Below are positions 2,294 to 27,080 of a DNA stretch of 34,936 nucleotides, piece after piece. Under the pieces are notes generated by a model, which saw only the letters and a program-made list of their open reading frames with translations, had not been told where the DNA came from and ran no database searches. The stretch is from Candidatus Moranbacteria bacterium RIFCSPHIGHO2_02_FULL_40_12b (lineage in GTDB: Bacteria; Patescibacteriota; Minisyncoccia; Moranbacterales; 2-12-FULL-40-10). The position numbers and the translations under genes were made by a program. Within the stretch, counting starts at the first letter, position 1; each line of letters opens with the position of its first letter. The stretch covers positions 72,425 through 107,360 of the forward strand of contig MFRX01000009.1 of assembly GCA_001784725.1 (NCBI GenBank). Reading direction: 5' to 3'.

Positions 2294-3850
2294 TTATAAA
2301 TAATAATGGGGGATAATACAATTAAATAACGCAATTGAATTTAATAATATCATCAAAATAAGCAAAGCAAAAATAATTTTTTTGTGCGAAACATTTCCAA
2401 AAATAGTTGAAAATCCGACTGTAATAAGCGCGAACTTTGCTCCAATAACTGGAAGAAAATATCGCCCAGGTGTTCCAATGGAAGAAAATGGAGCAGCAAA
2501 ATTACTCGAATTGGCTCCGAGAAAATTCACATAATGCATCATAAAATCAAGTCCAATAACCATAAAGAAAAGAAATAATAATTGAAAAAAAAGTATTTTT
2601 TTCTGAAAATCGAGTTCGTGATAATTTTTTAGCATTAAAAATATTTTTAAAATTATCCCAAGTGCGGCAACAACAAGAATGAGCCAAATAAAATAAATGC
2701 AGACCTGGTTGATTGGGACATTTGGGCTGCCGAAATTTCCCCAGTATGAAAGAGACCTGTCCAACATTATATTTGGTTGTAGTTGGTATAAAATGTAATC
2801 TTTAAAAATGAAAAATGGCCTTATGGCAAACTCAAAGTATCTATGAATTTGATTAAAAATTAAAAATCCCGCAGTTGAAATAATCAATACTATTGAAGTA
2901 AAAAAAACCAATAATAGAAAAAAACTTCTTTTAATAATTGAAAAATATGAGCAAATCATTTCTTTTTGATGAAGAAAAAGAGAAAAGATTATTAATAATA
3001 GCGATGCAACAGCAAGAAAATATCCTGTAGGCTTGGTATTTATTGCCAAAAACGTGCTTCCCAGAAGCAATGAAGCGTTTTTTACCGTCCAGCTATTTTT
3101 TAGCAAATGCAAAGCCCCAAGCAAAAAGATCCCGAAGGATAAGATCAATAAAGCATCAACATTTATTATTGAAAAGATAAATGTTAACATTGGTTGAAAA
3201 GATATTGCGCCAGCCATCGCTGCTGATTCTATAGGGGTAAAAGACAGTTCCTTGAATGAAAGGTATGAAATAATAATAAAAAGAAGAAGTATAAAAACGG
3301 AAATAATTCTTATAACGGTGACTTTTTCGATTATATTCGCATTTTTTATTGAAAGTTGGTTCTCTATGAAGGCAGTTATTTTATAATAAAGCGGCGAGTA
3401 GTTTATTATTTGTGGCGGATATTTTTCTACAAAACGGGAACCTTTAAAGTTTCTAATGTTGTTTTCCCGAGGTCCAAAAGATGAATTCTCCGAGAAAGAG
3501 TCCTTGAAATTTGTATCATTAATCAAATTTTGAGTAGACAAATTTTGAGTTGCATTGGATAGCTCTGGAGACAGGTTGTGAGTATTAAAGTCAAAAAAAT
3601 TCCAATTTTCAAGAGGAAAATCATGCGACATTGGTTTGTAATTTTTTGGTTCGGCGTAGTACTGAATTGTGGCGTAATGCCTGTGCTCATCTGGTGCATG
3701 AAGCAAGGGTATTGCGTAAACCCAAACGATTCCTTTAATAAAAGATACTAACAGAATCAGCAATATTAAATAATTTTCTTTAATCCAAATCTTAAGGCGA
3801 GTATTGTTGGATGCGTTAGTATGTAAATTACGGGATTGATTTTTTAGCAT
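2294..3850 (-). CDS. Polytopic membrane glycosyltransferase, GT-C/DUF2142-like
   Basis: APDEHRH after the first TM, YSPLYY, INVDAL and PGRYFLP motifs. Start moved from 3940 to ATG 3850, 6 nt after a TATAAT. Confidence 0.75.
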   Translation of the reverse strand: MLKNQSRNLHTNASNNTRLKIWIKENYLILLILLVSFIKGIVWVYAIPLLHAPDEHRHYATIQYYAEPKNYKPMSHDFPLENWNFFDFNTHNLSPELSNATQNLSTQNLINDTNFKDSFSENSSFGPRENNIRNFKGSRFVEKYPPQIINYSPLYYKITAFIENQLSIKNANIIEKVTVIRIISVFILLLFIIISYLSFKELSFTPIESAAMAGAISFQPMLTFIFSIINVDALLILSFGIFLLGALHLLKNSWTVKNASLLLGSTFLAINTKPTGYFLAVASLLLIIFSLFLHQKEMICSYFSIIKRSFFLLLVFFTSIVLIISTAGFLIFNQIHRYFEFAIRPFFIFKDYILYQLQPNIMLDRSLSYWGNFGSPNVPINQVCIYFIWLILVVAALGIILKIFLMLKNYHELDFQKKILFFQLLFLFFMVIGLDFMMHYVNFLGANSSNFAAPFSSIGTPGRYFLPVIGAKFALITVGFSTIFGNVSHKKIIFALLILMILLNSIALFNCIIPHYYL

Positions 3851-3856
3851 AACTTT

Positions 3857-3885
3857 ATTATAATTAAAAAGCGCAAAAAGGTCTA
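3857..3885 (-). promoter_or_regulatory. Candidate sigma70 promoter (TAGACC-17-TATAAT), likely leaderless
   Basis: Minus-strand TATAAT at 3862-3857 ends 6 nt before ATG 3850; -35-like TAGACC at 17-nt spacing. Confidence 0.5.
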
Positions 3886-4157
3886 ATAATAATGAATGAA
3901 GTCGCCAAAAGTGAGTTAAAAGATGTGAGTAATATAACAAGTATAAACAGGTTATTACTCGCTTAGTTCTATGAGATTATTAACAAAAACGCTATGAATA
4001 TAATAATACTTTGCGTGATTAATTTTAAAAATAGCATTATTACAAGAGCGAATATTTAAACAGGTTTATTTTATCAAAAAAGATAGAGCTAATAATTTTT
4101 CTTTTATGTCTTCCGTGGTGGGGGGGATAATTTTTTGATTGAGAATAATTAAAACTT

Positions 4158-5111
4158 ATGACCAGAATATTGATTACAGGAGGCGCGGGATTTATTGGAT
4201 CGGCTGTCGCTAAAAAATTAATGGACAGGGGATACAAAGTTGTCCTGTTAGATAATTTTAATGATTATTACAATCCGCGGCTCAAGCATGACCGCATCAA
4301 AAAATTTCTCAAGGGCCATAAATTCAAATTATACAAAGGCGACATACGGGATTATAAGTTGCTGGAAAAAATATTCCGGAAGGAAAAACCGGACAAAATA
4401 ATCCATTTGGCGGCGATGGCGGGAGTGCGCAGCTCTCTTTCAAATCCGAAACTTTACGCGGACGTAAATATTATGGGAAGCATAAATCTTTTGGAGCTGG
4501 CAGTGAAATATAAAATCAAAAATTTCGTTTTTGCCTCGTCTTCTTCCGTTTACGGCAACAATAAAAAAGTTCCCTTTTCCGAATCAGATCCAGTGGATAA
4601 TCCTATTTCTCCGTATGCCGCCAGCAAAAAAGCGGATGAGCTGATTGCCTATGTCTATCATCATATTTATGGTTTGAATATAACAGCGCTCCGTTATTTC
4701 ACCGTTTACGGTCCTTGGGGACGGCCGGATATGGCGTTATTTTTATTTACTGACGCCATAATCAAGGGCGAGCCGATCAATGTCTATAATTACGGAAAAA
4801 TGAGCCGCAACTTTTCTTACATTGACGATATTGTTTCCGGAACAATCACCGTTTTGGATAAATGCAAGGGCTATGGCGTAATGAATATCGGCGGTGACCG
4901 CGAAGAAACGCTGACGCGCTACATTGAAGTGTTAGAAAATTGTTTGGGTAAAAAAGCCAAGAAAAAAATGATGCCGATGCAGCCGGGCGATGTCCCGTCC
5001 ACAGTCGCGAATATCCGTAAGCTCAAAAAACTCGGATGGAAACCTACGACCAGGATTGAAAAGGGGATTAAGAATTTCGTGGAGTGGTATAATGAGTATT
5101 ATGGTATTTAA
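4158..5111 (+). CDS. NAD-dependent epimerase, UDP-glucuronate 4-epimerase-like
   Basis: TGGAGFIG, HLAAMAGVR, ASSSSVYG, YAASK, RYFTVYGPWGRPDMA and MQPGDV motifs. Confidence 0.9.
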   Translation: MTRILITGGAGFIGSAVAKKLMDRGYKVVLLDNFNDYYNPRLKHDRIKKFLKGHKFKLYKGDIRDYKLLEKIFRKEKPDKIIHLAAMAGVRSSLSNPKLYADVNIMGSINLLELAVKYKIKNFVFASSSSVYGNNKKVPFSESDPVDNPISPYAASKKADELIAYVYHHIYGLNITALRYFTVYGPWGRPDMALFLFTDAIIKGEPINVYNYGKMSRNFSYIDDIVSGTITVLDKCKGYGVMNIGGDREETLTRYIEVLENCLGKKAKKKMMPMQPGDVPSTVANIRKLKKLGWKPTTRIEKGIKNFVEWYNEYYGI

Positions 5112-5116
5112 ATTAA

Positions 5117-6421
5117 ATGATTAATGTTGTGAAAAGAAAAATTATGTCCATCGCGGAGATTTTGCATCTTAGGATTTTTGGGCATGAAATGAGTGATGAA
5201 ATGAGAAAATTTCTTGGAAATCTTTCTTGGTCTTTTTTTGGTGGTGGGATAGCTTCTGTGGCGATGCTTGCTATAAATATCATAGCAGGAAGATATATTG
5301 GACCGGAAGGATATGGAAAATATGTGCTTGTTCTTACATTGAGTCAGATATTTTTAATTCCCATCATGTTTGGTCTAGACATCGTTAGTGTAAGATCTAT
5401 AGCTAGAAGCAAGGATGAAAAAGAAAAAACAAAAAATATCTCCAGCACATTATATTTCGTTTTAACTACTCTGATTTCCTTTTCTTTACTTTTTGTTTTT
5501 ACATATAAGTTATTTGCATATAAATTTTCTATTAGTACTGCTTTATTGGAGGTTTGCTTTATTTTTACGATATTTTCTGCAATCAAGTTAGTCTCCGACT
5601 GCTTCATAAGAGGATTATATTTGTTTAAGCATCAATTTATTGGGCGAATTATTGAGGTTTGCGCGATTATTGTTGCATTTTTTATTTTTTTTATTATTAT
5701 CAAACAGCAAGATTACATGTCTTACATCTGGACGCTTATAATAGGTGCAGCGTTTTTAATAATTTTTTATTTTAAAAGTTTAATCCCATTTTTTTCCGAG
5801 TTTGATTTCAATTTACTTAAAAAACAACTTTCTTACGGAAAAATTATTTTTATTGGAACTATACTAGGAACCGGGTTTAATTCATTGGATAAATTTATTA
5901 TTACAAAAGAATTAAATATTTATCAATTAGGTATATATGGGGCTTATTTTATGGCATCAACAAATCTAATCGCTCAAGCAACTCAGATGTTTATTAATAT
6001 TTTTTTCCCAGTGGCTTCAAAATTTGAAAATAGATCTTTTTTGAAGAAACTTGATAAAATTTTTTTTATTGCGTTTATTCCTCTTTTTCTAATAATTTCC
6101 GGAATGATATTTATAATTATGAAATTATTTGGAGAGAAATATGGAGTAAATTTAAATTATGTGTTAAGTTTTGGCATTTTAGCGACTTTGCAAATTATTT
6201 TGACAATTAATGCCTCCACAATTACCGCAATTTCAAAAAAGCTTTTTAAAAAATATATTGCTTATTCTACGGCTATTAATGCTGTGCATATCGTCGCATA
6301 TGGAGTCATAATTTATTTAAAAATAGTTTCTATCCAATTAATAGTAATTCTTTTGATTGCCAATGTTTTGGTGACAATTTTTATTCAAAAAAAGATAATG
6401 AAGTTGGCCTTAAATAGCTAA
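5117..6421 (+). CDS. wzx: Oligosaccharide flippase (Wzx/MOP family)
   Basis: Many TM segments; RYIGPEGYG and LDKFII...LGIYG motifs. Confidence 0.8.
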   Translation: MINVVKRKIMSIAEILHLRIFGHEMSDEMRKFLGNLSWSFFGGGIASVAMLAINIIAGRYIGPEGYGKYVLVLTLSQIFLIPIMFGLDIVSVRSIARSKDEKEKTKNISSTLYFVLTTLISFSLLFVFTYKLFAYKFSISTALLEVCFIFTIFSAIKLVSDCFIRGLYLFKHQFIGRIIEVCAIIVAFFIFFIIIKQQDYMSYIWTLIIGAAFLIIFYFKSLIPFFSEFDFNLLKKQLSYGKIIFIGTILGTGFNSLDKFIITKELNIYQLGIYGAYFMASTNLIAQATQMFINIFFPVASKFENRSFLKKLDKIFFIAFIPLFLIISGMIFIIMKLFGEKYGVNLNYVLSFGILATLQIILTINASTITAISKKLFKKYIAYSTAINAVHIVAYGVIIYLKIVSIQLIVILLIANVLVTIFIQKKIMKLALNS

Positions 6422-6430
6422 GAAAATTGG

Positions 6431-6459
6431 TTGACTGCTTATTTTTAAGATGATAAAAT
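6431..6459 (+). promoter_or_regulatory. Sigma70 promoter, TTGACT-17-TAAAAT with extended -10 TG
   Basis: Near-consensus hexamers with exact 17-nt spacer in the 70-bp gap upstream of the SIS gene. Confidence 0.7.
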
Positions 6460-6491
6460 AAAAGAAATAAATTAACTAATTCAATCCAGCA

Positions 6492-7046
6492 ATGATTAAA
6501 AGTAATATTGAAAAAATATTAAAGGAAGTGTCCACAGTGCTTGATTTCGTGAATGAATCACAAGTAGAAATGCTAATCAGTGAGATATTAAAGGCAAAAA
6601 AAATAGTTGTTTGTGGAGCTGGTAGGGTTGGAATGGCCGTTAGAGGTTTCGGGATGCGGCTGGGACATTTAGGGTTAAATGCATATACACTTGGCGATTC
6701 TGTGGTTCCATCAGTTAGGGGTGGAGATTTATTTTTGGTCGCGTCTGGATCAGGCGAAACGCAAACGATTTATGATTTAGCAGAAATTGCAAAGAAGAAT
6801 GGCGCGCGAATAGTATTAGTGACGGGAAGTCCGGAATCTAGAATGGGAAAATTAGCTGATGTTATTGTACAACTAAGGGCGCCATCAAAAACTAATCCTA
6901 TTGAAGGTTTTTCTTCAATTCAGCCGATGACGACTTTAAATGAACAATGCTTAGGGATTTTTTTTGACGCAGTGGTACTTCTTCTTATGGAAAAAATGGG
7001 AGAAACGCACGATACGATGTGGGCAAGGCATTCTAATTTGGAATAA
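6492..7046 (+). CDS. hxlB: SIS-domain sugar-phosphate isomerase, 6-phospho-3-hexuloisomerase (HxlB/PHI)-like
   Basis: GAGRVG, MRLGHLG, SGSGET, IQPMTTLNEQ and terminal RHSNLE motifs. Confidence 0.85.
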   Translation: MIKSNIEKILKEVSTVLDFVNESQVEMLISEILKAKKIVVCGAGRVGMAVRGFGMRLGHLGLNAYTLGDSVVPSVRGGDLFLVASGSGETQTIYDLAEIAKKNGARIVLVTGSPESRMGKLADVIVQLRAPSKTNPIEGFSSIQPMTTLNEQCLGIFFDAVVLLLMEKMGETHDTMWARHSNLE

Positions 7047-7065
7047 TAAGAAAAAAAATAAAAAA

Positions 7066-7746
7066 ATGGCACAGAGAAAATTTAAAATAGCTGCATCATT
7101 AATATGCGGCGATCACGCCTCAATTAAAGATGATATAGCTGTTCTGGAAAAAGGAAAAGTTGATTACCTTCATTTTGATGTGATGGATGGTGTGTTTGTT
7201 CCAAGATACGGGCTTTACCCGGAATTATTAAAGGGCATAAAAGAAATAACGGCTATTCCCATTGATGTTCATATGATGACAGAAGAGCCGGCAAGATATA
7301 TTAAGGAATTTGCCGAAGCAGGAGCTGATATCATTGCCGTGCATATTGAAGCATGCAAGCACCTTCATCATACGTTAAAACTTATTCGAGACGCGGGAGT
7401 AAAGGCCGGAGTGGTATTGAATTACGCGACTCCATTAAGTGCTTTAGATTATATTATGGATGATATAGATATGGTTGAATTAATGGCTATAAATCCCGGA
7501 ATTGTCGGCCATAAATTAATTACAGGAACTATGAAAAAAATTGCCGATTTGCGCAAGAAGATAGACGAGTCAGGTAAAAATATTTTTATTGAGATTGATG
7601 GCGGCGTCACTCCGGAAAGTGCCCCAGAAATGGTTCGTGCCGGAGCTGATGTGCTTGTGTGCGGAACATCCGTAATATATAAAAAAGAAAAACCGTTAGA
7701 TGAAAAAATTAAAGAATTGCGGGAGTTGATAAATAGCAAACAATAA
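7066..7746 (+). CDS. rpe: Ribulose-phosphate 3-epimerase family protein (Rpe/AlsE-like)
   Basis: HFDVMDGVFVP, DVHMM, MAINPG and IEIDGG motifs. True start is ATG 7066, not the track start 6964. Confidence 0.85.
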   Translation: MAQRKFKIAASLICGDHASIKDDIAVLEKGKVDYLHFDVMDGVFVPRYGLYPELLKGIKEITAIPIDVHMMTEEPARYIKEFAEAGADIIAVHIEACKHLHHTLKLIRDAGVKAGVVLNYATPLSALDYIMDDIDMVELMAINPGIVGHKLITGTMKKIADLRKKIDESGKNIFIEIDGGVTPESAPEMVRAGADVLVCGTSVIYKKEKPLDEKIKELRELINSKQ

Positions 7747-7758
7747 GAATAGTTTTCT

Positions 7759-9339
7759 ATGTATAAAGTCCTAATAACAACATCCGGAACAGGTTCGCGT
7801 TTGGGCGACTTGACTAAGTATACAAATAAGGGATTAGTCAGAATCGGAAAAAAACCGGTTTTGTCTTATATTATTGAAACTTATCCTAAAAACACGGAGT
7901 TTGTCATTACTCTTGGATATTTTGGAAATCAAGTCAGGGATTTTTTGGGATTAGCATATCCAGACAAAAAATTTACTTTTGTGAATGTGGATAAATATGA
8001 AGGTGCGGGAAGTAGTTTGGGATATTCTATGCTAAAAGCGGAAAAATATTTGCGTTGCCCTTTTATTTATCATGCTTCAGATACAATAATTACAGAATCC
8101 GTTCCTGCCCCGAGTCACAATTGGTCAGGAGGGTTTAAAGGAGAAGGATCTTCAAATTACGCCTCATTTGATACTCTCAATGGCAGAATTCAGCAGATAT
8201 ATTATAAGGGAGAATCAATTAGTCCTGATTTTCTACATATTGGATTAGTAGGGATAAAAAATTACGATAAGTTTTGGAGTGCAATGAAGGTTCTTTATAA
8301 AAAAAATCCAAATGATAGTACGCTTGGGGATGTTGGCGCTATCAATAAAATGCTAAAAGATGGAGTAGATTTTAAGGTTAAAAAATTTAAAGAATGGCAT
8401 GATACTGGAAATGTGGAAACACTACATGAAACCAAAAATAAAATACGGGATTCCTTTCGCATTTTAGATAAAGCGGATGAATCCATTTTTATTTTTGACA
8501 AGTTTGTGATTAAATTTTTTGCCGATGAGAAAATGGTCAGCGATCGTGTGGTAAGAGGTAAAATACTAAAAGGACTAGTGCCGGAGATAGATGGTCATAA
8601 GAAAAATTTTTATAAGTACAAGTATGCCGACGGCCATCTTTTTTCAAAGGTTGCGACGCCTTATAATTTTGAAGATTTTCTTAAATGGACCGAAAGGGAA
8701 TTATGGAAGAAAACTAAAGAAATAAGCCCGCAAAAATTCAGAAAAATATGCTACGATTTTTATTACAAAAAAAGCATCGAAAGAATAAATAAATTTCTTT
8801 CTTCTAGATCAGTCAAAGACCAAAGTAATATCATAAATGGAGAAAAAGTTCCTTCAATAAAAGATATAATAAAAGAAATTAATTTTCTTTGGTTGTGTGA
8901 TGGAGAACAAAGTAATTTTCACGGAGATTTTATATTGGATAATATAATCAAGACAAGAAATGGATATGCTTTATTGGATTGGAGACAAAATTTCGGAGGA
9001 TTATTGAGGTCAGGAGATAAATACTATGATTTATCAAAATTAAACCATAATTTAACCGTTAACCATGGAATTATAAATAGAAACTTATTCACCATAAATA
9101 TAAAAGGCAATATTATAGAGTGTGATATTTTACGCAAAGATAATCTAGTCCAATGCCAGAATGTTTTATTTGAATTTTTAGCGAAAAAAGGCTATGATAT
9201 GAAAAAAGTCAGATTGTTAACCGCTCTGATTTGGCTAAATATGTCTCCATTGCACCACCATCCATTTGACTTGTTTTTATTTTATTTTGGGAAATTAAAT
9301 TTATGGCGAGAATTAAAAAAAATAAAGCAAAGAAAATAA
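7759..9339 (+). CDS. Bifunctional nucleotidyltransferase / APH-choline-kinase-like phosphotransferase
   Basis: N-terminal GTGSRLGDLTKYTNKGL and WHDTGN (NTP_transferase). C-terminal HGDFILDNI, LLDWR and YYDLSKL (kinase-like fold). Confidence 0.8.
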   Translation: MYKVLITTSGTGSRLGDLTKYTNKGLVRIGKKPVLSYIIETYPKNTEFVITLGYFGNQVRDFLGLAYPDKKFTFVNVDKYEGAGSSLGYSMLKAEKYLRCPFIYHASDTIITESVPAPSHNWSGGFKGEGSSNYASFDTLNGRIQQIYYKGESISPDFLHIGLVGIKNYDKFWSAMKVLYKKNPNDSTLGDVGAINKMLKDGVDFKVKKFKEWHDTGNVETLHETKNKIRDSFRILDKADESIFIFDKFVIKFFADEKMVSDRVVRGKILKGLVPEIDGHKKNFYKYKYADGHLFSKVATPYNFEDFLKWTERELWKKTKEISPQKFRKICYDFYYKKSIERINKFLSSRSVKDQSNIINGEKVPSIKDIIKEINFLWLCDGEQSNFHGDFILDNIIKTRNGYALLDWRQNFGGLLRSGDKYYDLSKLNHNLTVNHGIINRNLFTINIKGNIIECDILRKDNLVQCQNVLFEFLAKKGYDMKKVRLLTALIWLNMSPLHHHPFDLFLFYFGKLNLWRELKKIKQRK

Positions 9340-9806
9340 ATCCCAAGTTTTTGGTTTTTGACGTGGATGGTGTTTTTACAACCGGCCCTTTTTTATATAC
9401 GGTTAACGGAAAATTTGCCAAGACATTTGGTCCTCATGATAATGACGGGATAAAGATGATTAAAAATAAAATTAAAATTTGCGCTATTTCGGCTGACAAG
9501 AGGGGGTTTGAGATAACAAAAAAAAGAATTCAGGAGGACATGAAAATACCCCTAATCCTAGTAAATGAAAAAGAGCGACTGGATTGGTTTAAGAATAATT
9601 TCAAAAATCTAAAAGAAGAAGTTATCTATATGGGAGATGGAATCCATGATGCAGAAATTTTTGAGTATGTTTGTTATAGCATTGCTCCAAATAACGCTTT
9701 CTATTTGGCAAAAAATAAAGCCAGTTATGTTACTAATGCCAAGAGCGGAGAAGGCGCAGTGGCAGAAGCCTGTATTCATGTATTAAAAATATTTTTATCA
9801 ATTTAA
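9303..9806 (+). CDS. HAD phosphatase, KdsC/YrbI (subfamily IIIA)-like
   Basis: FDVDGVFT, YMGDGIHD and SGEGAVAE motifs. Confidence 0.85.
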   Translation: MARIKKNKAKKINPKFLVFDVDGVFTTGPFLYTVNGKFAKTFGPHDNDGIKMIKNKIKICAISADKRGFEITKKRIQEDMKIPLILVNEKERLDWFKNNFKNLKEEVIYMGDGIHDAEIFEYVCYSIAPNNAFYLAKNKASYVTNAKSGEGAVAEACIHVLKIFLSI

Positions 9807-9820
9807 TTTTTTAAAAAACA

Positions 9821-10798
9821 ATGGAAGAAATAAATATTACTGAAGGGTTAATCAATATGAATGATTCTGTATCAGCGAAAGAAACTGATTGGGTTCAATC
9901 ATGCGAAGATGCGGCTCAAAATGACGAGTTTTTTAAGACATTTCGATCTTCAAAGGCCTTTCAGCGTGTAATTGAGGGAACACCAAGAGTTGGTGGTATT
10001 TGGAACTTAAAAAGGTTATTGAAAGATAAAAATTTTTTAAAAACCCTGCCATTACTTCAAAAATCTGACATTATTGGACTTCCATTAAATACAATACAAT
10101 TTAAATTTAATGAAAAAAGCTACAATCTTTCCCCAACAACTATTCGATATGCAAATAATGCCTCGAACTGCGTATCTTTTTTTGGCAAAGATATTTTTTT
10201 AGGGAATACCGATATTTTTGAAATTGGCGCTGGATATGGAGGTGAATTTAAGGTTTTTAATGATTATTCAGTAGCTTTATTTAATAAAAAATTAGATACA
10301 AAATGGCATATATATGACCTTCCATCCTCAATCGCCGTTATTAAAAAATTTCTATCACATTTTAATTATCTGCCAAATTTTAATGAGTTAAAAAAGGATT
10401 CAACAGAAAAAAACTCTAACAGCCTAGTTATTTCAAACGGAGCTTTTTCTGAAATGACGGGGTCATTGCTAGATGAATATTTTGAAGCTGTTATTTCGCC
10501 TGCAAAATACGGCTATTTTATTTCTAATTTTGAGATCCAGTCAGAACCTTTTGGCGGTTGGAATACTAAAAAATTTATTATGCGCTTAAAAAAGTGTGGG
10601 AAGAATGACGTTGCTATTTTACCTGCTGAAAAATATTTGAGCTACTTCGATCAACAAGCTGGGAGTAAACTAATTGTTTTTGGGCACACTGCCTTAAAAG
10701 ACGATAAATCGAAAATTAAAGACATAATTTTAATAAAATTTATAGAATTTCTAGATAGTTGTGAGGATTTTTTTAAAAATAAATTTTTAAAAAACTAA
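9821..10798 (+). CDS. Putative sugar O-methyltransferase
   Basis: SPTTIRY, FEIGAGYGG, IYDLP and ISNGAFSE motifs. Confidence 0.7.
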   Translation: MEEINITEGLINMNDSVSAKETDWVQSCEDAAQNDEFFKTFRSSKAFQRVIEGTPRVGGIWNLKRLLKDKNFLKTLPLLQKSDIIGLPLNTIQFKFNEKSYNLSPTTIRYANNASNCVSFFGKDIFLGNTDIFEIGAGYGGEFKVFNDYSVALFNKKLDTKWHIYDLPSSIAVIKKFLSHFNYLPNFNELKKDSTEKNSNSLVISNGAFSEMTGSLLDEYFEAVISPAKYGYFISNFEIQSEPFGGWNTKKFIMRLKKCGKNDVAILPAEKYLSYFDQQAGSKLIVFGHTALKDDKSKIKDIILIKFIEFLDSCEDFFKNKFLKN

Positions 10799-10804
10799 CT
10801 TGGT

Positions 10805-11938
10805 ATGAAGAAAATATTAAGAAATAAAAGTATTCTAACTGGAAAAAATAAGCTAGAACAACTTTATGAATTTAAGAAGTTTCCTGTTTTTATGGGTTGC
10901 GTAGATAATTTAGATGATAAAAACGATATCAATGTTGATATGAGCTTTAGTATTTGTAGAGATACTGGGATAATTCAATTAGATGAATTATTACCGCTCG
11001 ATTTGATTTACCAAAATCAACATAACGATGGCGTAGGTAAAATTTGGCAAGAACATTATGTTTCTTTTGCAAAATTTTTAGAAAAATTTAATCCTAAGGA
11101 AGTATTGGAAATTGGAGGAGCTAATGATTTTATTGCAAATTATTATTTAGAGCGAAACCCAAAAACCACCTGGACAATTATTGAGCCCCATCCGCTTTTC
11201 AAAAATAAAAAAATAAAAATCATAAAAAGGTGGTTTGATGAATCGTTTGTGCTAAAATCAAAAAAAATTGATACAATAATGCATTCTCATGTATTAGAGC
11301 ATACATACGAACCAATAAAATTTATTAAGCATATCGCAAAATTCTCAGAAGAAGGGTCGCGACATATTTTTACAATCCCCAATATGGTTGAACAACTTTC
11401 TAGAAAATATACTAATTGCTTGAACTTTGAGCATACATTATTTTTGGCAGAGCCATTTATAGATTATATTCTAAGAATTAATGGCTTTAAAATATTAAAA
11501 AAAAGTTATTTTCAGGATCATAGTATATTTTATGCCACTGAAAAAATTAAATTAAATAAAGAAAAAATAACTTTACCAAAAAAATATTCTCAATACAAGA
11601 AACTTTTTTCCGAATTTGTTAAATATCATCAGGATTTAATTAATTCTCTTAATAAAAAAATAGACAAATTTGACGGAGATATTTATTTATTTGGGGCCCA
11701 TATTTTCTCCCAATACTTATTAGAATTTGGATTAAATAAGAAAAAAATCAAGGGGATTTTAGACAATTCAGATCTAAAAAATGGAAAAAGACTATACGGC
11801 ACCAATTTAATAGTTAAAAAACCAGAAACATTAAAAGGAAGAAAGAATGTCGCGATTATTTTAAAAGTTGGAGCCTATCGAAATGAAATTATAAAACAAG
11901 TAAAGAAAATTAATCCGAATATTGTTATTTTTGAATAA
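10805..11938 (+). CDS. SAM-dependent methyltransferase resembling NDP-sugar C-methyltransferases
   Basis: VLEIGG, HSHVLEH and FEH, plus C-terminal YLFGA...LDNSDLKNGKRLYGT...YRNEI matching the C-methyltransferase C-terminal domain pattern. Confidence 0.7.
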   Translation: MKKILRNKSILTGKNKLEQLYEFKKFPVFMGCVDNLDDKNDINVDMSFSICRDTGIIQLDELLPLDLIYQNQHNDGVGKIWQEHYVSFAKFLEKFNPKEVLEIGGANDFIANYYLERNPKTTWTIIEPHPLFKNKKIKIIKRWFDESFVLKSKKIDTIMHSHVLEHTYEPIKFIKHIAKFSEEGSRHIFTIPNMVEQLSRKYTNCLNFEHTLFLAEPFIDYILRINGFKILKKSYFQDHSIFYATEKIKLNKEKITLPKKYSQYKKLFSEFVKYHQDLINSLNKKIDKFDGDIYLFGAHIFSQYLLEFGLNKKKIKGILDNSDLKNGKRLYGTNLIVKKPETLKGRKNVAIILKVGAYRNEIIKQVKKINPNIVIFE

Positions 11939-11941
11939 AAT

Positions 11942-13084
11942 ATGGTTACTGCAATTTGCAATATATACATTAATTCTGAGGCAAAATTAGGTCTTTTTAA
12001 AGAGACCTTTCCTTTTGTTTATCCTATTAGTGATAATTGGCTTGTTTATATTAGGGGAAAATTTAAGCAAGAAGCAATCGAGCATATCAGAAGCTCATTT
12101 AACGATGTCGAGGACAGGTGTATATTCTTTGAAAGTCTTTATGATGATGATTGGGCGAAAAGCACTACGAGGATGCTGGAAAAATCCAAATACGATTACA
12201 TATATGTTTTTTTAGAGGATCATTTCTTATTAAAACCCATTGATCATTTTAAGAAGGTGATACGAGATATGATAAAAAATAATATAGATTATTTCCAATA
12301 CTCTTTTTTTAACATTGGACTACCCATTTATTCTATAGAACACTTATATCCTGATGTGACAGACTATCTTTGCGCATTTGAGTTTGATTCAGAAAAATTA
12401 CCAGTATTGCGAAAAACAAACAAGGCATTTTATCCATATTCACTCACTAGCGTTTCGTCGAAAAAGTATTTTAATCATCTTTTAAGCATTGAAAATAAAT
12501 ACATTATCAAGGTTCCGATTTTAATACAGGCTTTAATGGAGAATATCTTCTTTTTCTATCCAAGGAATCGTGTTTTTTGGCTTACGATAAATAAATTATT
12601 CTCAATTATCAATATTCGGTTTGTTATTTATCCCCGTGCCACCCCGTTTAATTTAGAAAAATCATTATTTGATTGTGATGAAGAATTATTGCCGATTAAG
12701 GTGGGCGGACTGAAAGAAGAAATTTTTGCAAATTGGGATGATGACAACAAATTAAGCAATTCATCCTTAATTAAACGTGGTTTATATCCTAAATACTTCC
12801 GTATTGACAGTCAGGAAAAGCCAAAAATTAACGAGGGTAGAGAATATATTCTAAATCAGGGTCAGAACAGTAATCATCAATATTGCCCTGATGTCAGCAG
12901 GGTTATGAAAATACCAAAAAAACATATTTACGTCAAAAAAGGAACTCTTAAAATATCATCAGAAAATGAATCATTTATATTAAATTCGGGGCAGTCAGTA
13001 TGGGTTACTGCAAACATTCCCCACTCTTTTTTTGCTTGTGAAGATTGTGTTTTTCATTTATATTTAGATAGTGGTTTACAGTAG
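11942..13084 (+). CDS. Hypothetical protein: GT-A-like N-terminal region plus C-terminal cupin-like domain
   Basis: YIYVFLEDHFL acidic motif; C-terminal IYVKKGTL...LNSGQSVWVTANIPHSF cupin pattern. Confidence 0.55.
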   Translation: MVTAICNIYINSEAKLGLFKETFPFVYPISDNWLVYIRGKFKQEAIEHIRSSFNDVEDRCIFFESLYDDDWAKSTTRMLEKSKYDYIYVFLEDHFLLKPIDHFKKVIRDMIKNNIDYFQYSFFNIGLPIYSIEHLYPDVTDYLCAFEFDSEKLPVLRKTNKAFYPYSLTSVSSKKYFNHLLSIENKYIIKVPILIQALMENIFFFYPRNRVFWLTINKLFSIINIRFVIYPRATPFNLEKSLFDCDEELLPIKVGGLKEEIFANWDDDNKLSNSSLIKRGLYPKYFRIDSQEKPKINEGREYILNQGQNSNHQYCPDVSRVMKIPKKHIYVKKGTLKISSENESFILNSGQSVWVTANIPHSFFACEDCVFHLYLDSGLQ

Positions 13085-13119
13085 AAAAATATAAAATTCA
13101 ATTTTTAAAGATAAAAAAT

Positions 13120-14097
13120 ATGAAAAAAGTAGCACTTATAACAGGTATCTTAGGTCAAGATGGTCCCTATCTCGCGAAACTTCTTCTGAAAAATAATTAT
13201 GAAGTTTATGGATTAATTAGGCGATATACGAATCCAAATTTCAGTAATTTAGATTATTTGGGAATTACAGATAAAGTTAATTATATATCGGGCGATATGA
13301 CTGACGAAGCATCTTTAATTAATATCATTAAAACAGTAAGGCCTGATGAAGTATATAATCTCGCAGCGCAGTCATTTGTTGGAGCATCATGGGATCAGGC
13401 AAAAGTGACTAGCGAAATAAATGCCCATGGAGTATTATATTTGCTAAATGCTATAAAGAATTTTGCGCCTAGTGCGAAGTTTTATCAAGCGTCAACTAGT
13501 GAAATGTTCGGGAATAGCCATAAAAATGGGCTTCAGACAGAAGAGACACCATTTCATCCACGAAGTCCGTATGCAATTTCGAAATTATATGCATATTGGA
13601 TGGCGATAAATTTTAAAGAAAGTTACGGAATGTTTTGCGCAAATGGAATACTTTTTAATCACGAGTCTCCAATTAGGGGCATAGAATTTGTTACACGAAA
13701 AATAACTGATGGGGTAGCAAGAATTAAGCTTGGATTAGCAAATGAGATTAGACTGGGAAATTTAGATAGTAAAAGAGATTGGGGGTTTGCCGGAGATTAT
13801 GTTGAGGCAATGTGGTTGATACTTCAGCAAAAAGAGCCAGACAATTATATAATTTCAACTGGTGAAACCCATTCAATTAGAGATTTCCTCGACGCTGCCT
13901 TTAATCATGTCGGAATTAAAAACTGGAAAAAGTATGTTAAATTAGACCCGAGATTTAAACGCCCAGCAGAACTTTTTGCATTGCACGGAAAATCAGATAA
14001 GGCGAGAAGAAAACTTAACTGGAAACCAAAAATCAAATTTGAAAAATTAGTTAAAATGATGATAGATGCGGATATAAAAAGATTGTCGAAAAAATAA
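13120..14097 (+). CDS. gmd: GDP-mannose 4,6-dehydratase
   Basis: ITGILGQDG, YNLAAQSFV, QASTSEMFG, PRSPYAISK, FNHESP, FVTRKI and RDWG motifs. Confidence 0.95.
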   Translation: MKKVALITGILGQDGPYLAKLLLKNNYEVYGLIRRYTNPNFSNLDYLGITDKVNYISGDMTDEASLINIIKTVRPDEVYNLAAQSFVGASWDQAKVTSEINAHGVLYLLNAIKNFAPSAKFYQASTSEMFGNSHKNGLQTEETPFHPRSPYAISKLYAYWMAINFKESYGMFCANGILFNHESPIRGIEFVTRKITDGVARIKLGLANEIRLGNLDSKRDWGFAGDYVEAMWLILQQKEPDNYIISTGETHSIRDFLDAAFNHVGIKNWKKYVKLDPRFKRPAELFALHGKSDKARRKLNWKPKIKFEKLVKMMIDADIKRLSKK

Positions 14098-14100
14098 ATT

Positions 14101-14934
14101 ATGAATTTTAGAGACAAGACAATTATAAAAACCGACCCTTTTTTATCCGTTGTTATGGCGGTGCATAATAGAGAAAAATATTTGCGAGAAGCTATTGAGA
14201 GTGTCTTGAATCAAACATATGAAAATTTCGAATTTTTTCTTATAAATGATGGATCAAATGATAATTCGTGGGAAATTATCAAATCATATGCAGAAATTGA
14301 CAGTCGAATAGTGTGCATAAATAATCATAAAAATCTCGGACAATCATTAGCAAGAAATGTGGCAATTAAAAAAGCACAGGGTGAATATGTTATCATTGCA
14401 GATTCCGATGATATTTGTTTGCCAAGTCGTTTTGAAAATCAGTTAAAATATTTCAAAGAACACAGTTTAGAAGTTGATGTTTTAGGTTCTTTCTTTTGTC
14501 TATTTACTGATGGTGACATCAATAAATGCGAATCAGTACCAGTAAGTATTTCTGATTTAAATGACGGTAAGCCGCCGGTTCATAATCCAACGTGTATGAT
14601 TAAACGAAGTATTTTTTCTAATAATGGCTATTATGACTCTAAATATGATAACGCCGAGGATTATGAATTGTGGTCACGTTGGTCTTCAAGAGGTGTTCGT
14701 TTTCATAATCTCCATGAAGTTTTATATAAAAAAAGAAATCACAGTGGTTGCGTGAGTACTGAAAGGATAAGGCATCAAAATTATCTAATGACTAAAATAA
14801 ATATAATCGCAATAATTAAATATCATAGGCGATTTACAATAGCTGGATACCTGCGCATTCTTGAGCAGCTATTCTATTTTATTTATTTATTGCTAAGATT
14901 AGATAAGGTATACAAAAAGAGTGGAAAATATTAA
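14101..14934 (+). CDS. Glycosyltransferase family 2
   Basis: SVVMAVHN, INDGSND, DSDD and AEDYELW motifs. Confidence 0.9.
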   Translation: MNFRDKTIIKTDPFLSVVMAVHNREKYLREAIESVLNQTYENFEFFLINDGSNDNSWEIIKSYAEIDSRIVCINNHKNLGQSLARNVAIKKAQGEYVIIADSDDICLPSRFENQLKYFKEHSLEVDVLGSFFCLFTDGDINKCESVPVSISDLNDGKPPVHNPTCMIKRSIFSNNGYYDSKYDNAEDYELWSRWSSRGVRFHNLHEVLYKKRNHSGCVSTERIRHQNYLMTKINIIAIIKYHRRFTIAGYLRILEQLFYFIYLLLRLDKVYKKSGKY

Positions 14935-14951
14935 AAAACATAATTATTCTC

Positions 14952-15689
14952 ATGGATAATAAAAAAATATTTGATAATTATTTAACGAATCATTATTCTA
15001 AGTGTGAAAAAACAGATTTCAACAACGATAATGAGGTGCTTGTATTACTTGATAAAAATAAGATTCCAATAGATTATAATCTAGGGTCGTTATTTAAGGA
15101 AAAAATAAGCAAAAAAAGCAAAATCCTTGACTTAGGATGTGGCTATGGAAGTTTTTTGTATTTTTTGCGATCGCATTATTATGAAAATGTGACTGGCATT
15201 GACATATCAACTGAAGAAATAGCAATTTGCAAGAAACTTTTCAAGACATATGAATTTTATCATGAGGATATTTTTGCCTATATTCAGAATACTAAAGAGA
15301 GATTTGACGTACTTTATTTGTCACACGTTCTAGAACATATTGATAAAAAACAACTTTTTGAATTTTTGGAAGGCGCAAATAATATTTTAAATGATAATGG
15401 CTTTTTTATTCTCGTGGTTCCAAATAGTGCTGCTTACTTCAATTCTGCGGCAAATCGATACGGAGACCTAACTCACGAGGTCGGGTTTACTGATAAGAGC
15501 TTAAGGCAAGCACTGATGGTAACAAAATTTGATAATATTAAAATTAAAAATTATTTTGGTGTTGGAAATTTTTGGTTGAATATTGTGAGAAAAGTGGCAC
15601 TTTTTTTATTTGAACTATTTATTCAGATTTTAGGTTATGAAAAGCAAGAAATACACACACCAAGCATTCTAGTTATCGCTAGGAAATAA
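14952..15689 (+). CDS. Class I SAM-dependent methyltransferase
   Basis: ILDLGCGYG, GIDIS, SHVLEH, VPN and RYGDLTH motifs. Confidence 0.9.
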   Translation: MDNKKIFDNYLTNHYSKCEKTDFNNDNEVLVLLDKNKIPIDYNLGSLFKEKISKKSKILDLGCGYGSFLYFLRSHYYENVTGIDISTEEIAICKKLFKTYEFYHEDIFAYIQNTKERFDVLYLSHVLEHIDKKQLFEFLEGANNILNDNGFFILVVPNSAAYFNSAANRYGDLTHEVGFTDKSLRQALMVTKFDNIKIKNYFGVGNFWLNIVRKVALFLFELFIQILGYEKQEIHTPSILVIARK

Positions 15690-17627: not shown

Positions 17628-18740
17628 TTATATTTTAATCAAATAATTTATTGTGTTAGAAAATTTTTGCGCGATTTTATTTAATCCAAACTGGTTCTGG
17701 ATTTTTTCTTTGGAGTTTTGTCCTATTTTTATTCTAATTTCCTGATTTTCAATTATTTTTTTCAATGAGTTTTTAATCTCCGCGCTATTTTTTATTTGAA
17801 CCAGAATTCCTGTTTTGTTATCCTCAATTAAGCCCTTATTTTCCGGAATGTTGGTTGTAATAATAGGCAATCCGCTTGCCATTGCCTCCATAATCGCATT
17901 ACTCATTCCCTCAAATAGGGTTGGAAAAACAAAAATATCGGAAATTTTTAGCAATTTTGGAACATCATTTCTTTTGCCTAGAAATAGTATATTATTTTTT
18001 GACTGGTAATTTTCTATTTGTTTTAATAAATTTTCTTTTTCTTCTCCATCGCCAACAATCAATAACTTCACATTATTATTTTCTTTATAAATATTTTCAA
18101 ACGCCTCCAATAGATATTTATGTCCTTTGTTGATATGTAAATTAGCTACGCAAATTATGGCTGTTTCCTCCGGCCGTATGCCTAAATTTTCTCTCAAAAC
18201 CTCGTCCCTTTCAATTTTATCATAAAAATCAACATCCACTCCGTTCGGAATGACGGTTATTTTTTCCCGCTTGACCCCGATATTTTCCACATAAAAATTT
18301 TTGACGGATTCGGAATTTGCCAAATAATTTTTCACAAAATATTTTGTTAGTTTCTCAAAAAGGCGCGCCGGCCAGTAATTTCTATGATTATAAGTGGTTC
18401 GCAGAAAAGGAATTATTTTTATTTTAGTAGTGGCTTGTAAAAATATTCTTCCAATTGCATCGGCGTGGAATAAGTAAGTTATTATAACATCCGGATTTAT
18501 TTTTTTTATTTCTTTCAATAATCTTAAATATGCCGGCAAGTCAAAAAAACCGCCTTGTTGAATGTTTATGACGGAAATATTTTCATTTTCAAATTTACCG
18601 GCCAGTTCGCCGCGCTTTTTTAAAGTGATAATAGCGTGCTCAAAATCAGAAAGAAGCGGAAGTGTTCTAAGGAGCATATTCTCACATCCACCGTTATCTA
18701 AGGATTGAATCAAGTGAATTATTTTTTTCTTATTGCTCAT
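17628..18740 (-). CDS. Glycosyltransferase family 4
   Basis: GGCE, IPNGVD, KGH and EGMSNAIMEAMASG motifs; ATG 18740 preferred as start. Confidence 0.9.
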   Translation of the reverse strand: MSNKKKIIHLIQSLDNGGCENMLLRTLPLLSDFEHAIITLKKRGELAGKFENENISVINIQQGGFFDLPAYLRLLKEIKKINPDVIITYLFHADAIGRIFLQATTKIKIIPFLRTTYNHRNYWPARLFEKLTKYFVKNYLANSESVKNFYVENIGVKREKITVIPNGVDVDFYDKIERDEVLRENLGIRPEETAIICVANLHINKGHKYLLEAFENIYKENNNVKLLIVGDGEEKENLLKQIENYQSKNNILFLGKRNDVPKLLKISDIFVFPTLFEGMSNAIMEAMASGLPIITTNIPENKGLIEDNKTGILVQIKNSAEIKNSLKKIIENQEIRIKIGQNSKEKIQNQFGLNKIAQKFSNTINYLIKI

Positions 18741-19824: not shown

Positions 19825-19828
19825 TTTT

Positions 19829-26264: not shown

Positions 26265-26429
26265 ATGAAATTTAGAGAAATTCCAGTGGTTATCCCTTGT
26301 TTCAACGAAGGGAAGACCGTCTATCAGAACATCCTGAAAATTTACCAAAAATTATTTCTGATCCAGATTGGGAAATTCGTTCGGCAGTGTTTTTTAAAGA
26401 GCAGAATGTCGGAAAGTCCGACAAGTTAA
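26265..26429 (+). pseudogene. N-terminal remnant of a GT2 glycosyltransferase (54 codons)
   Basis: Hand translation MKFREIPVVIPCFNEGKTVYQNILKIY... carries the GT2 VVIPxxNE motif, then loses similarity and stops at TAA 26427-26429. Not in the ORF track. Confidence 0.75.
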
Positions 26430-26599
26430 AAAGTTTATCAAGTGATAAAGTTGAAAGTGAAAAATTGCCTGTGATTGAATTTAAAAAAATAAATCCCACA
26501 AAGTATCGGGTACGAGTACATAATGTGAGCGGAAAATTCCCGTTGGTTTTTTCGGAGTCGTTTCATGACGGTTGGAAAGCATACTTGGCAAAGCCAAGT

Positions 26600-26655
26600 A
26601 ATTTTCAATTTTCAATTTCTAATTTCCAAACAAATTCCAATGATTTAATTTCCAA
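26600..26655. repeat. Degenerate 7-nt repeat (AATTTTC/AATTTCC) inside an open frame
   Basis: aattttc aattttc aatttct aatttcc ... aatttcc, encoding NFQFSISNFQTNSNDLIS. Confidence 0.7.
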
Positions 26656-27052: not shown

Positions 27053-27080
27053 AGATCCCTCGACTTCGCTCGGGATGACA
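27053..27080. repeat. Short REP-like hairpin inside an open frame
   Basis: agatccctcgacttcgctcgggatgaca: bulged stem ATCCC..GA / TCGGGAT; encodes RSLDFARDD. Confidence 0.55.

Follow-up and report, generated by a model that had tools for sequence, protein, structure and literature searches.

We analyzed a 34,936-nt stretch of contig MFRX01000009.1 from Candidatus Moranbacteria bacterium RIFCSPHIGHO2_02_FULL_40_12b (the window), which carries a compact four-gene cassette on its forward strand: an HxlB-family single-domain SIS sugar-phosphate isomerase gene (SIS, 6492–7046, 184 aa), an Rpe-family ketose-phosphate 3-epimerase gene (RPE, 7066–7746, 226 aa), a gene encoding a nucleotidyltransferase fused to an APH-type kinase (NTK, 7759–9339, 526 aa, with the nucleotidyltransferase half at about 7759–8460 and the kinase half at about 8461–9339), and a KdsC-like, YrbI-type HAD phosphatase gene (HAD, 9303–9806, 167 aa). 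SIS and RPE are separated by 19 nt and RPE and NTK by 12 nt, while NTK and HAD overlap by 37 nt. For RPE we used the homologue-consistent ATG at 7066 rather than the TTG at 6964 given in the list of open reading frames (ORFs), which would overlap SIS. An initial annotation of the window had described four tightly packed genes of these families inside a glycan locus, a description that both the coordinates and the family models bear out. It had also placed a strong internal promoter in front of them. A promoter-like site on the same strand (TTGACT-17-TAAAAT with TG before the -10 hexamer, 6431–6459) does lie in the 70-nt gap between an upstream flippase gene and SIS, the sole sizeable gap, and matches 10 of 12 consensus positions, yet 51 comparable sites were found in the 10.5 kb between 3500 and 14000 as against 49.9 ± 7.4 in shuffled sequence. 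The match is no better than chance in AT-rich DNA, making this a plausible site whose function is unproven.

The cassette recurs well beyond this genome. Among 401 genomes sampled from the phylum, 8 have NTK relatives (E <= 1e-20), and two genomes besides the host (G074 and G159) keep the order SIS-RPE-NTK-HAD followed by a gene for a C-methyltransferase-like enzyme, with G074 also keeping a GT-A/cupin gene, a GT2 gene and a methyltransferase gene further along. Scanning metagenome contigs with an alignment query gave 62 loci, from which 6 duplicates (identical first 600 nt of the NTK match) were removed; a scan with the single NTK protein gave 3 distant WOR-3 loci that match in the nucleotidyltransferase domain only, at 27% identity. 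Considering non-duplicate loci with at least 1400 nt upstream, SIS and RPE lie beside NTK in 28 of 42, an alternative gene pair takes their place in 11, and 3 have neither, one of these being a contig-end artefact. SIS and RPE never occur singly, the sole exception being a contig that ends inside RPE. Downstream, HAD adjoins NTK in 42 of the 48 loci with at least 600 nt of sequence, and the C-methyltransferase-like gene follows NTK-HAD in 23 of the 31 with at least 3 kb. The SIS-RPE-NTK-HAD loci have no conserved reductase. We also observed gene fusions among these families, such as NTK with HAD (702 aa, L059), a nucleotidyltransferase-only protein with SIS (419 aa, L087–L090), a GT-A-like domain with SIS (about 470 aa), GT-A-like and cupin domains with SIS (585 aa), and NTK with a TylF-like methyltransferase (778 aa, P0079). 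The gene-neighbourhood search that the initial annotation had called for thus returned the cluster repeatedly, and these patterns support a reading of SIS, RPE, NTK and HAD as one conserved functional unit inside glycan loci.

The most informative member of the cassette is NTK. Its sequence gives a weak NTP_transferase match at the N-terminus and has WxDxGN residues near the end of the nucleotidyltransferase half, a motif that we take to be usual in sugar-1-phosphate nucleotidyltransferases. AlphaFold models of the entire protein (pLDDT 92.4) and of its kinase half (pLDDT 94.2) are both confident. The nucleotidyltransferase half matches the folds of LicC (TM 0.84 by target), inositol-1-phosphate cytidylyltransferase (IPCT), RmlA, GalU and MurU, with LicC and IPCT being the best, and the kinase half matches APH(2''), ethanolamine/choline kinases, methylthioribose (MTR) kinase and LicA, at TM of about 0.5 and 10–18% identity. 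A sequence search of solved structures with the kinase profile gave nothing useful. The models suggest an N-terminal MurU/LicC-like nucleotidyltransferase followed by a C-terminal APH/choline-kinase-fold kinase, which is also the architecture of the phage enzyme AfhE. The family is large, with 2537 representatives in a 50%-clustered library at E <= 0.001 and 617 at E <= 1e-30.

AfhE belongs to a recently described phage pathway. The excerpted text of PMC13326640 (NAR 2026), with He et al., Nat Chem Biol 2026, and Mahler et al. 2025 among its references, reports that phages RB69 and DLP3 encode three enzymes leading from ribulose-5-phosphate (Ru5P) to NDP-arabinofuranose, and places the UDP-D-arabinofuranose pathway, which comprises an arabinose-5-phosphate isomerase, AfhE and the phosphatase AfhF, in HY126, RB69, DLP3 and relatives. 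As described there, AfhE, with its N-terminal MurU/LicC-like transferase and C-terminal kinase, phosphorylates arabinofuranose-5-phosphate (Araf5P) to the 1,5-bisphosphate (Araf1,5P) and also forms UDP-Araf; the HAD phosphatase AfhF dephosphorylates Araf1,5P, giving Araf1P. Comparing profiles with hhalign, we found that 30 NTK sequences align with 5 phage AfhE-like proteins across both domains (97.5%, E 4.9e-12, 471 columns). The NTK kinase profile also matches RB69 ORF052c (E 4.3e-4), with HGD...N, DxRxxFG, YDxAK and a C-terminal IW in common, motifs that exceed the generic kinase core. These profile comparisons show NTK to be a remote homologue, along its full length, of phage AfhE proteins.

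Gene order extends the resemblance. In RB69 the genes run ORF055c (GutQ-like SIS), ORF053c (nucleotidyltransferase), ORF052c (kinase) and ORF051c (HAD), where the split between ORF053c and ORF052c is a sequencing error according to the excerpted text of PMC13326640; phages PspYZU05, 4S and LemonAid have the same order of isomerase, nucleotidyltransferase-kinase and small phosphatase, and F48 and PTm1 have no annotated isomerase beside the AfhE-like gene. Cassette and phages thus have in common both an isomerase, nucleotidyltransferase-kinase, HAD order and a nucleotidyltransferase-kinase homologous over its full length. Our literature searches for the SIS-RPE-NTK-HAD combination found no description of the cassette, which the initial annotation had presented as a candidate undescribed pathway. 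In view of the shared gene order and homology with phages reported, in the text available from PMC13326640, to make UDP-D-arabinofuranose, the label no longer holds for the pathway type: the cassette matches a characterised pathway in part, in that the type of pathway is known and its cellular version and sugar are not.

The folds of NTK also invite a different reading, in which it is a LicC/LicA-like fusion that makes a CDP-alcohol (choline, ethanolamine or an alditol) and so provides the glycan with a phosphodiester head group rather than a glycosyl residue. LicC and IPCT are the best folds for the nucleotidyltransferase half, ethanolamine and choline kinases and LicA are among the matches of the kinase half, some sources label homologues as 'choline kinase', and a paralogous cassette whose NTK is 33% identical has a shikimate-dehydrogenase-like reductase that could make an alditol. 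The conserved cassette itself, however, keeps no reductase, and is constantly linked to sugar-phosphate isomerase/epimerase pairs and a sugar-phosphate phosphatase; the end-to-end homology of NTK to the arabinose-specific AfhE family and the WxDxGN residues, usual in sugar-1-phosphate nucleotidyltransferases, likewise speak for a sugar. We therefore regard CDP-alcohol synthesis as improbable.

Three further features of NTK loci deserve mention. A second, stand-alone nucleotidyltransferase (about 230–245 aa, 41–55% identical to the nucleotidyltransferase half) often lies beside NTK, for instance at L016:10954-11796 and in L047, L055, L056, L061, L065 and L088, and is the domain fused to SIS in L087–L090; it may add another nucleotide specificity, act as a partner subunit or lead to a further product. 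Three loci with 25–30% G+C (L071, L077 and L086) carry SIS-RPE-NT-NTK-HAD with 23–26 in-frame TGA codons in NTK alone (L071:9723-11270, L077:9717-11261 and L086:2218-3762), mostly at positions that are glycine in homologues. This pattern fits genetic code 25 (TGA = Gly), which would place the cassette in recoded lineages as well. Finally, the 724-aa NTK homologue P0358 has a GIY-YIG + NUMOD3 homing-endonuclease-like region N-terminal to its nucleotidyltransferase-kinase, which suggests either insertion of a mobile endonuclease at the gene or a mis-call that joins the two.

Turning to the phosphatase, the HAD translation carries DxDG and GDGxxD motifs, and its solved relatives are KdsC, with KDN-9-phosphate phosphatases also closest. 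It falls below the cut-offs of the KdsC subfamily model TIGR01670 (77 bits against 107) and of NF007019 KdsC (68.7 bits against 208). We propose from its family and motifs that it removes the distal phosphate of a sugar bisphosphate, and that it would thereby have the role of AfhF without belonging to the same subfamily. An SIS isomerase next to a KdsC-type phosphatase does recall KdsD and KdsC, and we considered whether the cassette might serve a Kdo-like 2-keto-3-deoxy-sugar pathway with the isomerase acting as KdsD and the phosphatase, whose nearest relatives are KdsC and KDN-9-phosphate phosphatases, as KdsC. No gene of the KdsA (DAHP_synth_1) family was found in the host genome or in the window, the transferase is not KdsB-like, the kinase has no place in the Kdo route, and HAD itself lies below the KdsC cut-offs. 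Given the absence of a KdsA-family gene from the genome search, we rejected the Kdo-like pathway, to which we attach almost no probability.

Family models place the isomerase with HxlB, as TIGR03127 scores 194.7 bits against a cut-off of 160, and its closest solved relative is B. subtilis YckF (129 bits). The KpsF/KdsD arabinose-5-phosphate isomerase model TIGR00393 reaches 26.6 bits where 203.7 are needed, GmhA models give just 19–24 bits, and the solved single-domain isomerase 3ETN matches weakly (E 1.4e-7). The protein is a lone SIS domain of 184 aa, as opposed to the SIS + CBS architecture of KdsD/KpsF. It keeps the conserved motif residues of the HxlB family, and the cassette version substitutes QPMTTLNE for QPMGTLFE. 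HxlB-family genes occur in 7 of the 401 phylum genomes, 3 in the cassette, 3 beside a true HxlA and 1 beside a dehydrogenase. The HxlA-linked HxlB proteins of the same phylum are 33–37% identical to the window SIS, and 23 cassette SIS sequences group apart from the HxlA-linked genes in a FastTree tree without support filtering. The initial annotation had noted that the window lacks hxlA, which is correct and extends to the whole genome (94% complete), where the best match to TIGR03128 (19.8 bits) is the RPE gene itself. We propose from these family relationships that SIS acts as a ketose-phosphate to aldose-phosphate isomerase.

The epimerase scores as an Rpe (TIGR01163, 224.6 bits against a cut-off of 212.6) and falls below the cut-off of the AlsE model NF007266 (180.5 bits against 271); against solved structures it gives 180 bits with Rpe and 129 bits with AlsE. 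The D-x-M-D, H-x-M, H/E and D-G-G columns, which hold the metal and catalytic motif residues, are kept in 29 of 29 cassette RPEs, and all or nearly all of these sequences share changes at three otherwise invariant positions (E. coli Rpe numbering), namely N45R (FVPN to FVPR), V141I and F145I (PGF to PGI). In a 54-row tree, the 29 sequences form one clade (99/100 support, stem 0.91) apart from all comparators, which comprised 18 single-copy Rpe of the phylum, 5 divergent Rpe, E. coli Rpe and AlsE; row L108, whose branch of 7.7 probably reflects a wrongly picked frame, was kept in. The cassette clade adjoins AlsE in this tree (support 92/82, not starred), and its members resemble AlsE in having an SL(I/M)C motif and one inserted residue in the C-terminal G(T)S loop. 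These AlsE-like motifs are not diagnostic, since single-copy Rpe of other families in the phylum (L097, L098) have them too. The phylogenetic comparison with housekeeping Rpe and HxlB that the initial annotation had suggested thus sets both cassette proteins apart. Its further check, for a second rpe, gave a mixed result: the cassette RPE is the sole Rpe-family gene found in the host genome, whereas G074 and G159 hold the cassette RPE plus a second, divergent Rpe (95–121 bits), a form that is the only Rpe in the related genomes G049, G126 and G348.

These data allowed us to weigh whether SIS and RPE are ordinary ribulose monophosphate (RuMP) and pentose-phosphate genes that merely sit in a glycan locus, with NTK and HAD alone activating the sugar. 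Both proteins do exceed NCBIfam equivalog cut-offs, for HxlB and Rpe respectively, and the host has no other Rpe-family gene that we could find. On the other hand, in 28 of 42 loci the pair stands directly 5' of NTK, neither gene occurring singly, SIS is fused to nucleotidyltransferase or GT-A-like domains in several loci, the RPEs form a separate clade on a long stem with a second divergent Rpe retained in G074 and G159, and the true HxlA-HxlB pairs of the phylum show only that 33–37% identity to cassette SIS. There is also no pathway for the two enzymes to serve, because the genome search turned up no HxlA, transketolase, transaldolase or Rpi: Pfam queries for Transketolase_N, TAL_FSA and RpiB, and E. 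coli queries for RpiA, TktA, Pgi and DeoA-D, gave no match in this 94%-complete assembly, where divergent forms may be missed. The same Pfam and E. coli queries did find PGK and a weak class II FBA-like gene. A route to pentose phosphates is not evident in the host genome, and the gene search demonstrates supply of neither fructose-6-phosphate (F6P) nor Ru5P. Already largely refuted by synteny, the central-metabolism reading seems to us very improbable, and a role for SIS and RPE as dedicated paralogues rather than housekeeping enzymes is supported by clade structure and gene context.

Together, these observations point to the cassette as a probable cellular counterpart of the 'phosphate relocation' route by which AfhE/AfhF-type enzymes make a nucleotide sugar, a judgement that concerns the pathway logic and not the sugar. 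From the observed gene content, conservation, dedicated paralogy, folds and NTK-AfhE homology we infer the individual catalytic steps, the order of kinase and phosphatase, the nucleotide and the sugar. RPE and SIS would start from a ketose phosphate of central metabolism and produce a rare aldose phosphorylated at its last carbon; the NTK kinase half would then add a phosphate at the anomeric C1 to give a 1,omega-bisphosphate, the KdsC-like HAD would take off the distal phosphate, and the nucleotidyltransferase half of NTK would couple the resulting sugar-1-phosphate to an NMP, yielding an NDP-sugar that the downstream methyltransferases and GT-A-like protein may modify and transfer to a surface glycan. 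The initial annotation had drawn the analogy with nucleotide-heptose synthesis, and this heptose-like order (isomerise, phosphorylate C1, remove the distal phosphate, nucleotidylylate) is indeed the best reading. Its proposal that recruited paralogues of central metabolism make an activated sugar stands as regards the dedicated SIS and RPE, which separate by clade and synteny, while the sugar and the enzyme steps are put forward here conditionally.

Comparison with known systems shows which parts of this scheme have precedents. The proposed passage from omega-phosphate through 1,omega-bisphosphate and sugar-1-phosphate to NDP-sugar would be that of the phage UDP-Araf pathway. The cassette differs from it in having an HxlB-type rather than a KdsD/GutQ-type isomerase, a KdsC-type rather than a small AfhF-type phosphatase and an additional dedicated Rpe-family epimerase, and in being cellular and set in a surface-glycan locus, whereas the phage genes adjoin that of a thymidylate-synthase homologue for DNA modification. 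The GDP-/ADP-heptose pathway (GmhA, HddA/HldE, GmhB, HddC/HldE) likewise combines an SIS isomerase, a C1 kinase, a bisphosphate HAD and a nucleotidyltransferase, but its kinase is GHMP or PfkB where the cassette has an APH fold, its HAD subfamily also differs, and it has no ketose-level epimerase step. In MurNAc recycling by MupP/AmgK/MurU (PMC5371407), the same three enzyme classes shift a phosphate from C6 to C1 and then make a UDP-sugar, and MurU is among the matches of the NTK nucleotidyltransferase domain; there, however, the phosphatase acts first and the kinase then acts on the free sugar, the proteins are separate, and the route is a salvage rather than de novo one that includes no isomerase or epimerase. 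With RuMP HxlA/HxlB, pentose-phosphate Rpe and E. coli AlsE/RpiB, the cassette shares family membership of SIS and RPE by score and retained motif residues, and it differs in lacking HxlA, in its separate clades and clade-specific substitutions, and in its glycan-locus context.

Several points weigh against the phosphate-relocation reading. The enzyme activities are predictions from sequence and structure models. NTK and AfhE-like proteins are only about 18% identical, and a tblastn search with NTK against 50,697 phage records recovered no AfhE-like phage and one marine virus only, so that predicting the substrate of NTK by homology with AfhE is weak. BLASTP likewise gives E 0.17 for SIS against the phage isomerase and E 5.3 for HAD against RB69 ORF051c (gp51/AfhF).

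The 11 loci with an alternative pair hold a supply module that is interchangeable with SIS+RPE. We refer to loci with SIS+RPE as V1 and to those with the alternative pair, f7 and f8, as V2; NTK of V2 loci is orthologous, at 55–63% identity. The f7 protein is a 110–140-aa cupin that matches PF01050 MannoseP_isomerase (40 bits), PF07385 Lyx_isomer (36 bits) and also the phosphomannose isomerase (PMI) domain of GMP_PMI. The f8 protein (331 aa) has profile matches to the solved GatZ-like 2FIQ (E 1.3e-6) and to 3TXV, then to class II aldolases, and keeps a D-H pair plus further invariant H and E residues; GatZ/KbaZ are F6P/tagatose-6-phosphate 4-epimerases according to the excerpted text of PMC11907403. 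In an NTK tree of 48 NTK rows (30 V1, 14 V2 and 4 undetermined) and 2 outgroup rows, V1 and V2 interleave, with V1 needing 8 changes and the well-supported branches alone forcing at least 4. Rough FastTree trees of the C-methyltransferase-like protein (25 rows, 7 module changes against 6.9 in shuffles) and of HAD (33 rows, 6 against 8.7) show no sorting by module. This interleaving on a common activation backbone indicates that the modules have been swapped, and the simplest reading is that both deliver the same or a very similar sugar phosphate. Fusions of the V2 families occur in the wider family too, namely cupin with NTK (P0370, P0373) and NTK with the GatZ-like protein (P0332).

We also considered f7 as a detached C-terminal cupin of the GT-A/cupin protein and rejected this origin, as the similarity is marginal (E 0.07–0.1) and each locus type has long as well as short forms. 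A paralogous cassette in two genomes (L017 in G348 and L018 in G049) consists of a GatZ-like gene, a PMI-like cupin, the nucleotidyltransferase-kinase with 33% identity and a shikimate-dehydrogenase-like gene, with L018 also holding genes for a KdsC-like HAD and a GT90-like protein; the product of this cassette may be an activated sugar that is reduced (alditol-type) or differs in some other way. The V2 pair is prominent on viral contigs. We found 58 IMG/VR contigs (L122–L179) with NTK homologues 28–54% identical; these reach 410 kb, some exceed 200 kb, and some are labelled GVMAG (giant-virus metagenome-assembled genomes). Among them f8 is present in 54 of 58, f7 in 52, SIS+RPE in 3 and a KdsC-like HAD in 2.

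As to the sugar, we hold NDP-D-arabinose to be the single most likely product, if only tentatively and at somewhat less than an even chance. In this version RPE would convert xylulose-5-phosphate (Xu5P) to Ru5P and the HxlB-like SIS would convert Ru5P to arabinose-5-phosphate (Ara5P), with the remaining steps as in the phages. D-arabinose is favoured because it is the sole product with biochemical precedent and because RPE scores as rpe over AlsE. The known reaction of HxlB, from 3-hexulose-6-phosphate (Hu6P) to F6P, corresponds to the conversion of Ru5P to Ara5P with one carbon more and the arabino configuration unchanged, and the phosphate-bearing tail of Kdo-8-phosphate, the KdsC substrate, is an arabinose-5-phosphate moiety; these established chemistries would favour D-arabinose as well. 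Against it, we saw no source of Xu5P or Ru5P in the 94%-complete genome, the known substrates of HxlB are hexose phosphates and those of the GatZ/KbaZ-like and PMI-like families of V2 are hexose 6-phosphates, and a neighbouring Gmd-like 4,6-dehydratase gene (13120–14097) and the C-methyltransferase-like gene suit a hexose better.

The same logic could thus act on a hexose derived from F6P, with the NDP-hexose then used by the neighbouring 4,6-dehydratase and methyltransferases, a possibility that, taken as a class of products, we rate roughly level with D-arabinose. Under one option, an AlsE-like RPE would take F6P to allulose-6-phosphate and SIS would give D-altrose-6-phosphate or D-allose-6-phosphate, leading to NDP-D-altrose or NDP-D-allose; under the other, net C4 epimerisation would lead to tagatose-6-phosphate or talose-6-phosphate, through the GatZ-like protein or through an HxlB 3-ketose and C4 inversion by RPE. 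Each of the four supply families has an F6P-binding member: HxlB, AlsE within the Rpe family, GatZ/KbaZ (as given in the excerpted text of PMC11907403) and type II PMI. The f8 matches to 2FIQ and 3TXV with the retained D-H pair and invariant H and E residues, and the motif, loop insertion and tree position (92/82) that cassette RPEs share with AlsE, are consistent with this, as is a genome with PGK and a class II FBA-like gene in which pentose-phosphate enzymes were not detectable by the searches above. The tightly linked methyltransferases resemble those of deoxyhexose pathways, and the locus has its Gmd-like gene while no dedicated ManC was found in the genome, only two RmlA-like transferases.

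Other evidence runs counter to a hexose. Our literature searches found no NDP-altrose, NDP-allose or NDP-talose pathway of this kind; RPE lies below the AlsE cut-off and above that for rpe, and the AlsE-like motifs recur in the single-copy Rpe of L097 and L098; and most loci lack the Gmd-like gene. In addition, the two options give a different sugar for each module, yet NTK, HAD and the C-methyltransferase-like protein do not sort by module. By analogy with characterised family members, V1 would lead through allulose to altrose or allose (the C3-epimer series) and V2 through tagatose to talose (the C4-epimer series), so that if both modules make the same product one of them must act off-precedent: either the GatZ-like protein would give a C3 epimer via retro-aldol chemistry, or RPE would invert C4 of an HxlB 3-ketose. 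Within the hexose class we place altrose and allose somewhat ahead of talose and tagatose. Products outside these two classes are unlikely, at roughly half the chance of either. From the list of products that the initial annotation had offered, allose and altrose thus keep some probability and a ketose, free or activated, is the least supported, while D-arabinose, with the sole biochemical precedent, was not on it. Elsewhere in the host genome, contigs C16, C29 and C13 hold two RmlA-like transferases that score below cut-off and a single PMM/PGM-like mutase; as no dedicated mannose-1-phosphate guanylyltransferase (ManC) was found, the source of a GDP-sugar for the Gmd-like dehydratase is not evident.

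What is new, relative to the phage pathway, is the cellular glycan-locus setting in the candidate phyla radiation, the recruitment of HxlB-, Rpe- and KdsC-type enzymes including a dedicated epimerase, the interchangeable cupin/GatZ-like module that is abundant in large viruses, and the putative product with its methylation. A bolder and, taken as a whole, rather doubtful extension is that the nucleotidyltransferase-kinase family constitutes a large, almost unstudied activation system of ultra-small bacteria, jumbo phages and giant-virus-like contigs, fed from F6P by two swapped non-homologous modules that converge on one rare hexose phosphate of the D-altrose or D-talose type; the NDP-hexose would be new to biology, would undergo C- and O-methylation and would end up on viral DNA or at the surface of the cell or virion. 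If the phosphate-relocation reading holds, the phage UDP-arabinofuranose route would be one branch of a far wider family serving surface glycans of the candidate phyla radiation and many large environmental viruses, and a function could be named for several thousand genes now called hypothetical or mis-named as 'ribulose-phosphate 3-epimerase', 'hexuloisomerase', 'dTDP-glucose pyrophosphorylase' or 'choline kinase'. It would also correct reconstructions that count cassette Rpe and HxlB as evidence of pentose-phosphate or RuMP metabolism in reduced genomes, offer four small soluble enzymes for in vitro synthesis of rare NDP-sugars, and make the swappable modules a clean natural case of non-orthologous displacement of a two-enzyme step.

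The cassette lies within a run of forward-strand genes from 4158 to 15689, with further glycosyltransferases on the opposite strand. Upstream are an NAD-dependent epimerase/dehydratase of the SDR family (4158–5111) and a Wzx-type flippase (5117–6421), the latter syntenic in G074 and G159. Immediately downstream are a putative sugar O-methyltransferase (9821–10798; TIGR04371 NanM-like, 35.5 bits, below cut-off), in a variable slot that holds a TylF-like methyltransferase in 16 loci, and the three-domain C-methyltransferase-like S-adenosylmethionine (SAM) enzyme (10805–11938), assigned from Methyltransf_23 and Methyltransf_14 domain matches, whose Atlas structure aligns at TM 0.84–0.95 with clusters of the same family. 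The GT-A-like domain with a C-terminal cupin domain follows (11942–13084; Cupin_2 match weak), a candidate transferase for the product. Its Atlas structure reaches TM 0.43–0.59 with GT2-like models, a lead only, and its relatives occur in both V1 and V2 loci and are fused to SIS in L073–L075 and L091/L092. Sequence searches of solved structures gave spurious RecA rows only for the C-methyltransferase-like protein and nothing useful for the GT-A/cupin protein. The run ends with the GDP-mannose 4,6-dehydratase-like SDR noted above (gmd model 405 bits against a cut-off of 415), a GT2 glycosyltransferase (14101–14934) and a SAM methyltransferase (14952–15689), the last two syntenic in G074. With its flippase, glycosyltransferases, SDRs and methyltransferases, the setting is by predicted gene content a glycan locus, and the G+C content is ordinary.

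The host genome comprises 0.94 Mb in 46 contigs and is the assembly estimated above to be 94% complete. Named homologues come from Moranbacteria, Microgenomates, Pacebacteria, Gribaldobacteria, Andersenbacteria and WWE3, which indicates that the host belongs to the candidate phyla radiation. The region is present in 9 DNA sequencing runs, all of them groundwater or soil metagenomes, and no RNA run is listed among the runs containing it. In or beside the glycan locus we also noted large ORFs without a Pfam match, at 2294–3940 (- strand, 548 aa), 22886–25006 (- strand, 706 aa), 26297–27259 (+ strand, 320 aa) and 31233–32264 (- strand, 343 aa). Finally, an asparagine-synthase-like gene (listed at 19829–21718) overlaps the ORF at 18730–20070 by 240 nt, and one of the two starts is probably mis-set.

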